Source of the DNA: an uncultured Alphaproteobacteria bacterium
Lineage (GTDB): Bacteria > Pseudomonadota > Alphaproteobacteria > Paracaedibacterales > CAITNM01
Length of the DNA stretch: 64,000 bases
Direction of reading: 5' to 3'
Assembly: GCA_903874955.1 (NCBI GenBank)
Contig: CAIQTY010000051.1
Location: 2,686 to 66,685 of the forward strand
Shown here: piece by piece, positions 23,258 through 35,503 of the stretch
How positions within the stretch are numbered: the stretch's first letter is position 1
How the letters are laid out: each line of letters begins with the position of its first letter
The notes under the pieces: model-generated
The model's input: the letters and a program-made list of their open reading frames with translations, nothing else
Told to the model about the DNA's origin: nothing
Database searches by the model: none
Position numbers and translations under genes: made by a program

Positions 23258-23437
23258 TGTATATATGTGATGGCTTTCCAATACCCATATGCCACATCAA
23301 GCGTTACAAACGTTCAAAAAAAGATGACCATTTTTTTGGTTTCAATGGGCATATTGTTATTACGCAGCGTGGCAATGCTGTTGCTTATTAACTTACGGCA
23401 GCCAATGTTGACGAGCGTGATATTGTGCCAGAAATAG
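23258..23437 (+). pseudogene. internal fragment of an IS982-like DDE transposase, with an in-frame stop
   Basis: This frame (not the tracked ORF frame) reads LYICDGFPIPICHIKRYKRSKKDDHFFGFNGHIVITQRGNAVAY*LTAANVDERDIVPEIATN*. That resembles the DSFPLPVC...YFGYKxH...G...xTPANxxDR block of IS982-family transposases. A stop codon bounds it upstream. Confidence 0.45.
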
Positions 23438-23597
23438 CTACTAATTGACCCATCTTTTTTTGTTTTACTCAGTGTATTAAGTATTTTTACTTATATCTTA
23501 AGTTCCATTAGAGTCCCCCGAAATATGTCTTATTCATGTCCTTTTTGCTGTCCAATTTTTTGGGACTATAATGGGGATTCTTCCACAGGACCTGTAG

Positions 23598-24470
23598 CTA
23601 TGACCTTAATTGGTTTTTTAAGAGCTGTCTGTTCTTATACCAATCTCTATCGTCCGCATAATCCATTTTTCTTAAAAAGGACGTCATATCAGATATAAAA
23701 GGATAGTCAAATGTCGGACCCCAACCACCTAAATATTTAGGAAAATTAAGATTTCCCGCCCTTAGTAACTCAACAGCATAAGAATGTGAGGCTCTATTAT
23801 ACCCAAACATTGTTTTTAGTTTAGGTATCTTTTGATCCCCTAACGCTTTTTGGGTGATTCTCATTGCATCAATCGCTAAAATTGGTTTTGTAAAAAACGT
23901 TTTATAAAAAACTTCCTTACCGTTCTCTGGTTCATGATTGGGACACATCTTTCTTCTTATCGTTTCAAAATCAATAATTTGGACCTGACCGTCGGCTAGA
24001 CTAAAGCCTATACAATAGAACCTACTATCTTTAAAAGGAGAGCCATTATCATTTGAGCGGATGCGAAAGCTTTGTTTTATATTTATATCTGATGTTACAG
24101 TTTCACTCGGATAGGAAAAATTGATTTTATTTTTATTTTGGTATAAATCATTATCATCTCTTACAAGATTAACTCCAAGAAAGTCTGGAATAGAAACTCT
24201 TTGTTCTACAATAACTTCTCCTGATCTTAGACAAAAAGTATCAGACACGGGTTCAAGGATAGTATCTGAGAAGACAACAGCAACAATCACATTGCTAAGC
24301 TGTTTTTGTAAATCCTCAGAGATAAGCACGTTAACACTCGAAACCCCTTCTGCAAGAAATCCATCACTAAAAGGGTCATAATAACCAAATCTCTCAGCGG
24401 TCGATGCCTCAATTCTTATTGCAAAAAAATAGCTGATAATAGCAAAAGTATGCAGTTTTGATATCTTCAT
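23598..24470 (-). CDS. hypothetical secreted protein, 3' partner of the TIR gene
   Basis: 290-aa ORF with leader MKISKLHTFAIISYFFAIRIEAS. It starts 14 bp after the stop of the TIR gene on the same strand. No family recognised. Confidence 0.55.
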   Translation of the reverse strand: MKISKLHTFAIISYFFAIRIEASTAERFGYYDPFSDGFLAEGVSSVNVLISEDLQKQLSNVIVAVVFSDTILEPVSDTFCLRSGEVIVEQRVSIPDFLGVNLVRDDNDLYQNKNKINFSYPSETVTSDINIKQSFRIRSNDNGSPFKDSRFYCIGFSLADGQVQIIDFETIRRKMCPNHEPENGKEVFYKTFFTKPILAIDAMRITQKALGDQKIPKLKTMFGYNRASHSYAVELLRAGNLNFPKYLGGWGPTFDYPFISDMTSFLRKMDYADDRDWYKNRQLLKNQLRS

Positions 24471-33019: not shown

Positions 33020-33049
33020 CTATAGATATTCGAGCACAAAAATATCAAT

Positions 33050-35503
33050 TTAAATTAAAATATTCCTGCAAGCTGCTACCAAATGATTTCCCATAATTAA
33101 TCTTTGTTCGTTGAACAAAATGGTTCCTTGAAATTCTTGAATAAGCGCATTTGTAAAATGAGGATTACCTTTTGCATAGGTTTTGAGAAAATCAACAAAA
33201 TCGGGAATATAGATTTCCATATTGCTTAATATTTCAGCGAAGAATTTTTGTATTTGCTGGGATAAGTCTTCTTTTTTATAGTCAACAATAACGTCAAAGG
33301 TTTGTCTGAATTTTTCAACTGCTATTTGTGCACAATAGCTTGTACCGACGGGGGTTTGGAAAAATTTTCTGAATTTTTCCTTTTGCCAACTAGTTGCTAT
33401 TTCTAAATGTTTGCTTATTTCATGGGTAAATAGACAATTAATACCTAGGTTTTCCTCAACTATTAGCTCATCACCGCCATGCTTTCCTTTGAAAGAATTG
33501 AAACCAACATCAAGTAGGTTATTATCAGTTAAAAAATTGAATAAGACATGATCAGAATTTGGGGCGAAGGGACCATGATTTCTAATTTCATCTAAAATAG
33601 AGAGAATTCCAGATTTTACTACTTGTTTTGCTGCTTGATTACGTACACAAATAAGTTGAATTTTTTGATATAGCATTATCGGAAATGTTTCCATACGTTC
33701 TTTGAAACGCTCATTCCATAGAAATCTATTGAGCCTCAGGCCGTCATAGACTAAGTCCAAAATAGTAATCGTGTCAGGGATGGTGTAAAACTGGCCGGAC
33801 AGACAATTTGAATGTTTTTCTGTATAAATCACACGATTTGCTTTAAAGGGATTCAGCAAATTGCTGTATTTAAGAATAATTTCATTGGCTAAAATTTCAG
33901 TTGGTACAGGCAGCATAAATAAAGGTAGTAATTCCTTTTGAAAAAATTGATCAAAATGATACTTCAAATCAGTTTTCTCAGAACCTAAAAATCTGCAAAG
34001 ATTCACAGATGATCCTCGGGGCGCTTTAAAGGTTACCCAAGGTTGCTCCTCAGCGTTCATATTTGACGCCGATGCACTACTAGAAATGACGGTTAGTTCC
34101 CGTGGGGGTTTGGGAAACTCTATACTTTGACTGCTTAATATTTCAGCGTCACTTTGTTCAGGAATTCCTTCTCCAGATGGTACCCCTGGAGCTTTTGCAA
34201 AAATGCGATTTGGGATATCTATATTAATAGTAAGGCTTGGGCGTCTGCCAAGATCATGTTTTGTTCTTTTTTGAAATATTTTTTGAATTTTTTTAGCAGC
34301 TATTTTTCTCTCAAAATTAAGAACATCAAAGGTGTACTTGCGCAATTCAGGAACTTGTAAACTTGGGTATAGATTTTTTATTGCTGCATAAATCAACGCA
34401 TTTTTTATATTCAGTAATCCCATTCCCCAAAAGGCAGGATCATATTCTTTGAATGTTAAGTAATCAGTTTTTCTAGTCGTTTTTGGTTTTTCTTTGGGAT
34501 CATTTATGTATATAGCGTTATAGCCATTGTTGAAAAGCTGAAAGATATCACGATCTGCTGATTCAAGAAGAACTTCTTTTAGCTGGGCTGTAGAGATCGT
34601 TGGATACATTGATAGCACAAGGGCAGCTGCTCCTGATAGTATTGCTGCTGCACCAGAGGTGCCTGATTGGGGTGAGTACTCAGAAGATCCTTCAGGGCCC
34701 GAAGCTGATAAAGATTCATCAGACAGTACCCATAAAAAATTGTGCTGAAATTTTTCCATAGAGCCAGGTAAAGCAGAGAAAGTTCTGGGTTTGTAATCTT
34801 GCCGAAGACTGCCTGTAAAAATTGTTGATTGAAGAAGATCATCACAATTATCGGTGTGCGGATCAATTGATAAATTTTCTTTATGATTACCTGCCGATTT
34901 AACAATTAAAATGTTTTTCTTATCGGGTAGATTACTAAATAAATTTTTAAAACCTTGTTGCTTTTGATTGCCGAATGAAGCGTTAATGATTCTTACATTT
35001 TCCATACTTGAAAAGTCACTGGTTGGCCTGACACGAATGCACGCACCAGGAGAAATTGCATGGATGTACGCTGCCATTGAGGATCCGTGATCAGTGCTGT
35101 AAGCAAAGTTTTCAATAGGTTTATCTCGTGATCTGGTTTCAACGTAGTTCCTGACTTCATGATGAGTGATGCCAGAATCCTCTAATAATAAGATCGTTAC
35201 GCCATTGCCGAAAATGCCTTGTTCATGGGCAAAAGGGGCCATTGCTGCAGCCTGGGCAGAAGTGTTTTTTAAAAAGATATAATCTTGGCGACTTATGCCA
35301 TTTGTTGCTTTGCGGGAGACTTTTAAAATATCTTTTCGAAGTTCAGATAACAAAATACTATGTTTCCTGTACATTTTCGCATTTTTGGGAATTTCCACCA
35401 TATTCCCGAGGTGCTTTTGATACTCAAGGAAGGAGTCAAACCTTCCGGCCCAAAGCGTAAAATTCATCCATACACAATAAAAAATACAGTATTTAAAACA
35501 CAT
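33050..35503 (-). CDS. secreted subtilisin-like (S8) serine peptidase (paralogue B)
   Basis: D (TILLLEDSGITH), H (TDHGSSMAAYIHAISP), N (RIINASFG) and S (SGTSGAAAILSGAAAL). It shares a C-terminal domain with paralogue A (FKANRVI..., ...ILSLLY/ILSILDE...). Confidence 0.85.
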   Translation of the reverse strand: MCFKYCIFYCVWMNFTLWAGRFDSFLEYQKHLGNMVEIPKNAKMYRKHSILLSELRKDILKVSRKATNGISRQDYIFLKNTSAQAAAMAPFAHEQGIFGNGVTILLLEDSGITHHEVRNYVETRSRDKPIENFAYSTDHGSSMAAYIHAISPGACIRVRPTSDFSSMENVRIINASFGNQKQQGFKNLFSNLPDKKNILIVKSAGNHKENLSIDPHTDNCDDLLQSTIFTGSLRQDYKPRTFSALPGSMEKFQHNFLWVLSDESLSASGPEGSSEYSPQSGTSGAAAILSGAAALVLSMYPTISTAQLKEVLLESADRDIFQLFNNGYNAIYINDPKEKPKTTRKTDYLTFKEYDPAFWGMGLLNIKNALIYAAIKNLYPSLQVPELRKYTFDVLNFERKIAAKKIQKIFQKRTKHDLGRRPSLTINIDIPNRIFAKAPGVPSGEGIPEQSDAEILSSQSIEFPKPPRELTVISSSASASNMNAEEQPWVTFKAPRGSSVNLCRFLGSEKTDLKYHFDQFFQKELLPLFMLPVPTEILANEIILKYSNLLNPFKANRVIYTEKHSNCLSGQFYTIPDTITILDLVYDGLRLNRFLWNERFKERMETFPIMLYQKIQLICVRNQAAKQVVKSGILSILDEIRNHGPFAPNSDHVLFNFLTDNNLLDVGFNSFKGKHGGDELIVEENLGINCLFTHEISKHLEIATSWQKEKFRKFFQTPVGTSYCAQIAVEKFRQTFDVIVDYKKEDLSQQIQKFFAEILSNMEIYIPDFVDFLKTYAKGNPHFTNALIQEFQGTILFNEQRLIMGNHLVAACRNILI

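Follow-up and report, generated by a model that had tools for sequence, protein, structure and literature searches.

A lineage-specific patch of TIR, NB-ARC and subtilase genes with predicted export signals in an uncultured freshwater alphaproteobacterium

The window analysed here is a stretch of 64,000 nucleotides (nt) from contig CAIQTY010000051.1 of an uncultured Alphaproteobacteria bacterium, and positions 23258–35503 of it hold a 12-kb group of genes for TIR, NB-ARC and subtilase proteins. The group begins with the remnant of an IS982-type DDE transposase, recognised by six-frame translation and Pfam (~23254–23445, plus strand). Three genes on the minus strand follow, encoding a protein of 290 amino acids (aa) with no Pfam family (23598–24470), a small TIR protein of 303 aa (24484–25395; TIR_2, E=1.9e-10), and a TIR-NB-ARC protein of 1123 aa (25717–29088; TIR_2, 5.5e-9; NB-ARC, 9.7e-10; DUF7779). 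A divergent intergenic spacer of 472 bp (29089–29560) separates the last of these from the plus-strand gene of a 1152-aa LuxR-NB-ARC-TPR protein (29561–33019; GerE/LuxR helix-turn-helix (HTH), 1.2e-13; NB-ARC, 2e-10; TPR_12/TPR_MalT). The convergent minus-strand gene encodes an S8 subtilase of 817 aa (33050–35503; Peptidase_S8, 1.6e-14). Just beyond the stretch lies the plus-strand gene of a 742-aa protein with Sel1/TPR repeats and a C-terminal YoeB-like domain (35718–37946). Calls of open reading frames (ORFs) and domain assignments confirm this order, which an earlier note had proposed, and the export signals or transmembrane (TM) segments that it had claimed for nearly all members are borne out by hydropathy and by conservation across homologues. 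The six ORFs are intact, two of them longer than 1100 codons. The patch is lineage-specific and is situated in the chromosome of a freshwater alphaproteobacterium.

The small TIR protein is formed by a signal-like N-terminus with an h-region at residues 14–28 (25312–25356), a TIR domain (24802–25122) with the candidate catalytic residue Glu160, and a hydrophobic C-terminal tail at residues 282–298 (24502–24552). Its best PDB match is the plant protein AtTIR (3jrn), with SWikkE aligned to SWCldE, and Glu160 aligns with the catalytic Glu of AtTIR and Roq1. By sequence, both the small TIR protein and the TIR-NB-ARC protein belong to the TIR-domain proteins, with putative NADase activity. The two proteins have a homologous signal-plus-TIR module and are encoded on the same strand.

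The gene of the 290-aa protein is located 13 nt downstream of the small TIR gene, and its product has a signal-peptide-like N-terminus. The protein has no match in Pfam, NCBIfam or PADLOC, and only three non-self relatives were found among 1.84 billion representatives. Two of these are full-length (35–37% identity), and the third is a repeat match in an RTX protein; the three-sequence alignment of the family contains 78 invariant columns. At locus L157, the 290-aa homologue P0296 starts 2 nt after a homologous TIR gene. The TIR protein encoded there (278 aa; 30% identity to the small TIR protein, E=3e-27) is built of the same three parts, a signal-like N-terminus, a TIR domain with W-I-K-R-E, and a hydrophobic C-terminal tail. 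At locus L155, the gene upstream of the 290-aa homologue ends in a homologous hydrophobic tail. The pair of small TIR gene and 290-aa gene is a conserved cassette. The earlier note had introduced the 290-aa protein as a secreted ORFan; it does have relatives, in a tiny family, and its pairing with the small TIR protein is conserved. The L157 cassette has a housekeeping context, beside genes for aconitase and BipA, and the 5 kb read there contain no NB-ARC gene. Residues 124–167 of the 290-aa protein match ten repeats of the 1745-aa RTX protein P0297, in which Pfam recognises ten HCBP_related (PF06594) stretches. These residues probably correspond to one HCBP_related module, a call that Pfam does not make there.

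The TIR-NB-ARC protein is composed of a signal-like h-region (28978–29022), a TIR/SEFIR domain (Pfam match 28477–28794), an NB-ARC domain (27598–28149), a winged-helix DUF7779 domain (27259–27477), and an all-alpha C-terminal region (25720–27171). The last of these had been described as a repeat region; Pfam identifies no repeat in it. The database version of the protein starts at the second Met (29061). A 16-sequence alignment shows no variation in the P-loop, Walker B, TSR, PLAL and HRL motifs. The AlphaFold2 (AF2) model of the protein has a pLDDT of 68.5 and bears its closest Foldseek resemblance to ZAR1, NRC, Apaf-1 and CED-4, and its TIR part matches the prokaryotic SEFIR structure 5y8f. 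The models of both STAND proteins of the stretch, the TIR-NB-ARC and LuxR-NB-ARC-TPR proteins, match ZAR1, NRC, Apaf-1 and CED-4 with E of ~1e-8. The invariant columns of both families include G-GG-GK[ST], D-N, T-[ST]-R, PL(A/D), a GLPL-like motif and an MHD-like His. In motifs and fold, both proteins are STAND NTPases of the NB-ARC type (PF00931).

The closest homologue of the TIR-NB-ARC protein, P0002 (44% identity), is encoded alone beside the genes for rpL20, rpL35 and cytochrome c1, and the gene of the next one, P0003, adjoins insertion sequence (IS) fragments. Signal-like N-termini, with a positive n-region, 13–15 hydrophobic residues and small residues at −1, are present in the window protein and in P0002, P0004, P0005, P0007, P0010, P0011, P0014, P0015 and P0017. 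At one threshold they occur in 8 of the 17 closest TIR-NB-ARC relatives, as against 5 of 103 distant NB-ARC-TPR proteins. Proteins of the TIR-NB-ARC clade from Paracaedimonas and from loci L004, L013 and L160 carry them as well, as do the patatin and trypsin-like neighbours in L004, L007 and L160. A profile search of genome contigs with the TIR-NB-ARC alignment retrieved mostly actinobacterial NB-ARC-TPR genes of the FxSxx type and missed the genome of the window itself, and L013 was its only useful result.

The LuxR-NB-ARC-TPR protein consists of a GerE HTH domain (29633–29800), an alpha/beta linker domain, a single TM helix at model residues 281–306 (30401–30478), an NB-ARC domain (30584–31108) and TPR repeats (~31658–33016). 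In its AF2 model (pLDDT 81.8), helix 281–306 is isolated between low-confidence linkers, and the Foldseek matches of the model include Avs3. At least 147 full-length proteins belong to the family (E≤1e-10), which is present in Paracaedimonas, Finniella, Odyssella and one Rickettsiaceae metagenome-assembled genome (MAG). We scored strongly hydrophobic 19-residue segments in the 114 family members with a recognisable P-loop. Such a segment is present upstream of the P-loop in 107 of them. At a stricter cut-off 92 of the 114 have exactly one, at a median distance of 74 residues (range 65–101) before the P-loop. A hydrophobic segment downstream of the P-loop was found in one protein only. The position of the TM segment is kept in the family and its sequence is not. 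The 15 residues before the segment contain on average 3.62 lysines and arginines, compared to 2.36 in those after it; 72 members are richer before the segment and 11 are poorer. By the positive-inside rule, the HTH domain is therefore predicted to be cytoplasmic and the NB-ARC-TPR part to be outside. TM position and charge bias agree with a predicted ToxR-like bitopic arrangement, and the HTH family differs from that of ToxR.

We surveyed the neighbourhoods of 61 metagenome loci of the LuxR family (1010 ORFs; BLASTP, E≤1e-5). None of these ORFs matches the small TIR protein, the TIR N-terminus, either of the two subtilases of the window, the 290-aa protein, the Sel1-YoeB protein or the 293-aa protein encoded beyond it. 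LuxR-family genes are often arranged in tandem; L104, L117 and L130 each contain arrays of three or four copies. The LuxR N-terminal modules occur with either type of NB-ARC domain, and the four tandem paralogues of L117 (6348–20110) mix both, which indicates domain shuffling between the two families. P0006 (L005, 1855–5817) combines LuxR, TIR-type NB-ARC and Sel1 parts and has no TM-like segment. A few kb from the LuxR-TM-NB-ARC arrays of L104 and L120 are genes for signal-bearing patatin-LRR and trypsin-LRR proteins (L104, 3087–5183; L120, 3415–5097; LRR_6 type), which are typical eukaryote-directed effector architectures.

The subtilase is of the secreted type and is formed by a catalytic domain (~34514–35251) and a family-specific C-terminal region of ~480 aa. 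Residues D109, H139, N206 and S283 align to D32, H64, N155 and S221 of subtilisin BPN', and the H, N and S are invariant in a 16-member alignment. With its predicted triad in subtilisin order and oxyanion Asn, the protein belongs to the peptidases S8. A paralogue, encoded on the minus strand 16 kb away (14799–17777), is 37% identical over the whole length, including the C-terminal region, and has no TIR or STAND neighbour. The family comprises 22 proteins, all from MAGs. The five other contexts available (L008–L012) contain genes for DUF374, an ABC-F protein, poly(A) polymerase, MlaA and similar proteins, and tblastn detected no TIR or NB-ARC there. A search of the plasmid collection with the subtilase gave no match, and the family has no TIR/SEFIR domain (hhalign probability 0.1%). 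There is no support for the subtilase as a member of a system with the genes around it. Directly behind the catalytic domain, the family has a conserved stretch resembling an IQ motif, AAKKIQKIFQKR, with the consensus AAxKIQRxFRxR; Pfam is silent on it, and a calmodulin-binding reading is therefore unsupported.

Distant relatives of the TIR-NB-ARC protein are part of a cluster common to the Paracaedimonas acanthamoebae plasmid L007 (CP008937.1, 14593–32954) and the 164-kb contig L160 (1–23405). The gene order of the cluster is a signal-bearing TIR/SEFIR-NB-ARC (~1480 aa), a signal-bearing patatin, a signal-bearing trypsin-like protease with a C-terminal SEFIR-like domain, and a SEFIR-NB-ARC-TPR, and the proteins of the two clusters are 30–41% identical. 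One 1155-aa gene encodes the SEFIR-NB-ARC-TPR in L160; in the plasmid its counterpart is broken into two, IM40_09810 and IM40_09805. The plasmid record labels all the cluster genes as hypothetical proteins. The SEFIR-like domain of the protease is ~40% identical to the N-terminal domain of the adjoining STAND proteins, and the sharing of this domain is a sequence signature of homotypic adaptor coupling. In L004, a patatin gene is located beside patatin-NB-ARC genes. The NB-ARC domain of the window LuxR protein is of the same type as those of the SEFIR-NB-ARC-TPR genes, at 37–39% identity. A TIR-type NB-ARC gene adjoins an NB-ARC-TPR gene in about five of the nine TIR-type loci with readable flanks, namely the window, L013, L099, L007 and L160, whereas such adjacency is seen at only one of the 61 LuxR-type loci. 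The orientation of the pair is divergent in the window and tandem in L013, L099 and L160.

The earlier note had left two interpretations side by side, and conserved adjacency had been set beforehand as the test between them. Homologues of the subtilase, LuxR and TIR-NB-ARC genes are scattered and not co-localised, which by this test speaks against a single system for the whole set, and the complete gene set was seen solely in contigs of the same organism. Adjacency is conserved for the TIR gene with its partner and, in some loci, for the two NB-ARC types, and not for the subtilase or across the 61 LuxR loci. Accordingly, of the two interpretations, one multi-gene system is not supported, with its parts scattered elsewhere, and a cluster of independent eukaryote-like effectors is retained, with a modest balance of probability in its favour. 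By a similarly narrow preference, we interpret the stretch as a patch of at least four separately evolving units, the TIR cassette, the TIR-STAND, the LuxR-STAND and the subtilase, at the interface between a bacterium and a protist, and not as one machine.

We hypothesize that each STAND protein would be a ligand-triggered nucleotide switch. Ligand would bind to the repeats, nucleotide would be exchanged, the NB-ARC domains would oligomerise, and the N-terminal domains would thereby meet. In the TIR-NB-ARC protein the output would be the activation of NAD+-cleaving or scaffolding TIR domains, and the protein might recruit the neighbouring small TIR protein by TIR-TIR contacts. The LuxR protein would oligomerise on the outer side of the membrane, and this would draw its cytoplasmic HTH domains together and turn transcription on, as in regulators of the ToxR type. 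Since the bulk of the proteins is predicted to be outside the cytoplasmic membrane, the targets are likely derived from a protist host rather than being phage proteins made in the cytoplasm. The NB-ARC-TPR part appears to be placed outside by two independent devices, an internal TM segment after the HTH domain or an N-terminal signal, as in the SEFIR-NB-ARC-TPR of L160. Extracytoplasmic placement, as predicted from hydropathy and flanking charges, is a conserved trait of the family.

Several points speak against the interpretation as separate units. Export of the proteins is predicted from their hydropathy and the charges flanking the segments. Nucleotides would have to be supplied to a STAND ATPase outside the cytoplasm, which is plausible only if the organism is intracellular. 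In symbionts that dwell in host cytosol, host ATP must pass the outer membrane on its way to the ATP/ADP translocases, which are common in amoebal symbionts (PMC4198247), and a nucleotide supply for an external ATPase would therefore be feasible. The synteny of L007 and L160, where the protease has the TIR/SEFIR domain of the STAND proteins, makes some multi-gene coupling likely, and this could extend to the window trio of TIR, TIR-NB-ARC and NB-ARC-TPR proteins. The five of about nine readable loci in which a TIR-type NB-ARC gene stands beside an NB-ARC-TPR gene point the same way, and few contexts were sampled per gene.

These points lead to a smaller multi-gene STAND conflict system, which we consider rather unlikely. 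It would be made of the small TIR protein with its partner, the TIR-NB-ARC and the NB-ARC-TPR, with homotypic TIR/SEFIR recruitment and the subtilase perhaps as an effector, by analogy with Apaf-1, which recruits caspase-9 through CARD domains. The signal-plus-TIR module common to the small TIR and TIR-NB-ARC proteins encoded on one strand is consistent with such a core, as are the conserved gene order of the L007 and L160 clusters, the SEFIR-like domain common to their protease and STAND proteins, the patatin gene beside patatin-NB-ARC genes in L004, and the adjacency of both NB-ARC types in five loci. However, the orientation of the NB-ARC pair varies, the closest TIR-NB-ARC homologue lacks the upstream partner, and the TIR cassette of L157 is located beside aconitase and BipA genes with no NB-ARC gene within 5 kb. 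Furthermore, 60 of the 61 LuxR-family loci have no TIR-type NB-ARC neighbour, and the subtilase lacks a TIR/SEFIR domain and, in its other contexts, has no NB-ARC gene nearby. As both NB-ARC families exist in several copies, some adjacency can come from tandem duplication in plastic regions.

It is less probable still that the genes form a cytoplasmic anti-phage patch of an Avs-like TIR-STAND, a TIR protein resembling Thoeris or bSEFIR, and a STAND regulator, with the hydrophobic N-termini being anchors or artefacts of start-codon choice. The succession of effector, STAND and repeat sensor is that of Avs, Avs3 is among the Foldseek matches of the LuxR-STAND model, and an IS remnant lies alongside. 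The overlap with known immune modules that the earlier note had seen reduces to weak domain-level PADLOC matches, bSEFIR (3.8e-9 and 1.8e-8), VakA, subtilase (1.8e-5), IetS (2e-4) and ThsB (0.0089), and to no system. No PADLOC model of Avs (E≤0.01, either STAND protein), ThsA, gasdermin or IetA is matched. An Avs system was rejected on the absent Avs model match together with the predicted extracytoplasmic location, and Thoeris on a ThsB match of only E=0.0089 and no ThsA-like match among the eight proteins. A gasdermin or IetAS system was likewise set aside, since the gasdermin and IetA matches are missing, the IetS and 'subtilase' matches are at the level of the S8 domain, and homologues of the protease are never beside such genes. 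The hydrophobic segments also argue against cytoplasmic proteins. They lie within the ORFs, and any alternative Met outside the TIR domain comes only after them. Among relatives at 25–44% identity their position is kept and their sequence is not, and the charge bias predicts that the NB-ARC-TPR part is outside the membrane. The relatives are concentrated in protist endosymbionts, near secreted patatin-LRR and trypsin-LRR proteins, and the stretch has no presence/absence variation in four metagenomes. A decaying accessory region of non-functional remnants beside a dead IS is very improbable. The transposase is truncated and has an internal stop, and split homologues occur elsewhere, in L013, in L093 and as the pair IM40_09810 and IM40_09805. 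Against decay stand the six intact ORFs, the invariant catalytic and nucleotide-binding motifs, and the recurrence of identical or near-identical sequence in several metagenomes at flank depth.

The stretch is not demonstrably a discrete 12-kb accessory island; a dead IS982-type fragment marks one side only. The window has a GC content of ~37%, and the ORFs of the stretch (0.34–0.36) resemble the ORFs of unknown function at 8.6–12, 14.8–17.8 and 54–55.7 kb. Their codon usage is near the window mean. A deviation in GC content or codon usage as a sign of recent transfer finds no support. Scans of the window for tRNA genes and Rfam families were both empty. In four metagenomes, from lakes or other sources, the read depth of the stretch equals that of its flanks. 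Apparent long skips (24147→31888 and 23388→31467) were set aside as being supported by single contigs with sides of only ~24 nt. Promoter and terminator scans of the stretch gave results at or below the shuffle expectation, and no convincing operator-like palindrome was found in the 472-bp spacer. Low-GC ORFs (0.31–0.34) with signal-like N-termini and no family match also occur at 8665–12027 and 54148–55668 (255, 421, 362 and 506 aa), so that an island character is not unique to 23–35 kb.

The exact window sequence was found only in lake-water and related metagenomes, several of which contain it in identical or near-identical form. GroEL has no relative at ≥90% identity in the protein collection, and its best matches in the plasmid collection, from Alphaproteobacteria, are 78–80% identical. 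Relatives of the proteins of the stretch are found in Candidatus Paracaedimonas acanthamoebae, Odyssella, Paracaedibacter, Finniella, a Rickettsiaceae MAG and many alphaproteobacterial MAGs. The host bacterium is probably a Holosporales/Paracaedibacter-like associate of protists.

The IS982-type remnant is located between a photolyase gene and the 290-aa gene and retains 64 codons, interrupted by a stop (DDE_Tnp_1_3, E=3.9e-9, profile positions 8–79 of 155). The left flank contains DNA-repair genes (AlkB-like, SDR, DPRP and photolyase). The right flank contains genes for a GNAT protein, an ELM1-like protein and a type VI secretion system (T6SS). The Sel1-YoeB protein is composed of a signal-like N-terminus, Ser-rich regions, Sel1/TPR repeats and a YoeB-like RNase domain (37701–37934). 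The domain is matched by Pfam YoeB_toxin above the cut-off (2.3e-7) and by S. aureus YoeB 6l8e (E=7e-4), and it retains GKPE, SRR and the terminal HY. By sequence criteria the C-terminus is a YoeB/Txe toxin. No YefM-like antitoxin gene was seen near the gene, and the fusion of the domain to a 650-aa Sel1 protein indicates that this is not a classical toxin-antitoxin pair. The protein looks like a secreted fusion in the style of polymorphic toxins. It is followed by a 293-aa signal-bearing protein of unassigned family (38016–38897, minus strand). Contig depth in two metagenome runs reaches 123x and 222x at 37428–38091, compared to 3–7x in the rest of the region; a short stretch within these positions is repeated or common to much more abundant organisms. 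A fused TssBC is encoded by one 642-aa ORF (40768–42696, plus strand; TssB, residues 6–162; TssC, residues 168–638), and a gp25/TssE-like gene follows (43344–43877). Almost all Holosporales have a conserved, non-standard T6SS (PMC11909080); the T6SS adjoining the stretch fits this conserved system, and the fused TssBC fits its 'non-standard' character. Two tandem MFS transporter paralogues (56246–57595 and 57609–58964) have near-identical N-termini; the first alone was run against Pfam.

Both STAND proteins resemble known systems in part. The TIR-NB-ARC protein has the architecture of Avs and of the plant TNL proteins Roq1 and RPP1, an N-terminal TIR domain, an NB-ARC STAND and a C-terminal helical repeat sensor, with P-loop, Walker B, GLPL- and MHD-like motifs, and its model is closest to plant NLRs, Apaf-1 and CED-4. 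The window clade differs in having a signal-like N-terminus, no PADLOC Avs match, relatives mainly in protist endosymbionts, and no phage link seen. The LuxR protein joins DNA binding, a STAND NTPase and a TPR sensor within a single polypeptide, as AfsR, MalT and the LAL regulators do, and its DNA-binding domain is N-terminal as in AfsR. In contrast to AfsR, this domain is LuxR/GerE rather than SARP, and the TM helix found between the HTH and NB-ARC-TPR parts in 107 of 114 members predicts a sensor-ATPase outside the cytoplasm. With ToxR and CadC the protein would share its predicted topology, a cytoplasmic N-terminal DNA-binding domain, one TM helix and an external sensor, with charges in support of an N-in orientation. 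However, the HTH is of LuxR type instead of an OmpR-type winged helix, and the predicted external part is not a small domain in the periplasm but an NB-ARC-TPR ATPase of ~850 aa.

NTP-dependent conflict systems with effector-associated domains have reportedly been described by Kaur, Burroughs, Iyer and Aravind. The L007 and L160 clusters are similar to them in having a TIR/SEFIR domain on STAND sensors and on a trypsin-like protease encoded in adjacent genes, with patatin alongside, and so is the window in having a TIR module on the TIR-NB-ARC and on the adjacent small TIR protein. The differences are that all members have signal-like N-termini, that the window lacks patatin and the trypsin-SEFIR protein, and that its S8 protease has no adaptor domain. 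The small TIR protein resembles Thoeris and bSEFIR proteins as a stand-alone protein of TIR/SEFIR fold with a conserved Glu. It differs in the missing ThsA, the poor ThsB match noted above, a bSEFIR match that covers profile positions 37–200 of 412 only, and in its signal-like N-terminus, TM tail and conserved partner. Rickettsia and Wolbachia phage WO encode NB-ARC/NACHT proteins that have been interpreted as host-directed (PMC5062602, PMC6133264). They are likewise STAND-domain proteins of obligate intracellular Alphaproteobacteria, in another lineage; the window proteins have TIR/SEFIR or LuxR N-termini, signal or TM segments, and no prophage context.

In plants, animals, fungi and bacteria alike, STAND/NLR proteins are considered cytosolic sensors. 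In the library searched for exported or periplasmic STAND proteins, or for NB-ARC, TIR or LuxR proteins of Holosporales, the only result was a partial precedent, a periplasmic NACHT (STAND) domain predicted in the target of a diversity-generating retroelement (PMC10907252). A 2025 review of Holosporales does not mention NB-ARC, TIR or LuxR proteins (PMC11909080). In the literature searched we found neither the LuxR-TM-NB-ARC-TPR family nor signal-bearing TIR-NB-ARC proteins described, which is not proof of absence. We speculate, tentatively and with some doubt, that protist-associated Alphaproteobacteria may possess NLR-type NB-ARC switches outside the cytoplasmic membrane in two forms, LuxR-TM receptors and exported NB-ARC fusions with TIR/SEFIR, patatin or protease domains, and that the divergent pair and the TIR cassette of the window may be one sensor-effector unit. 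The LuxR-TM receptors would sense host ligands in the periplasm, which host ATP could reach in a symbiont dwelling in the cytosol, and would signal across the membrane to DNA. The exported TIR/SEFIR, patatin or protease NB-ARC proteins would assemble on the bacterial surface or in the host.

What is new here, within known protein types, is the predicted external topology of two NB-ARC families together with the conserved cassette of the TIR gene and its partner. The negative result matters as well: immune-looking domains encoded side by side do not make a defence system unless their adjacency is conserved. If the predicted topology is true, the NLR principle would also operate on the extracytoplasmic side of a bacterium, and the LuxR-TM-NB-ARC-TPR proteins would be transmembrane one-component regulators of a new class, in Holosporales-like protist symbionts that have been little studied.

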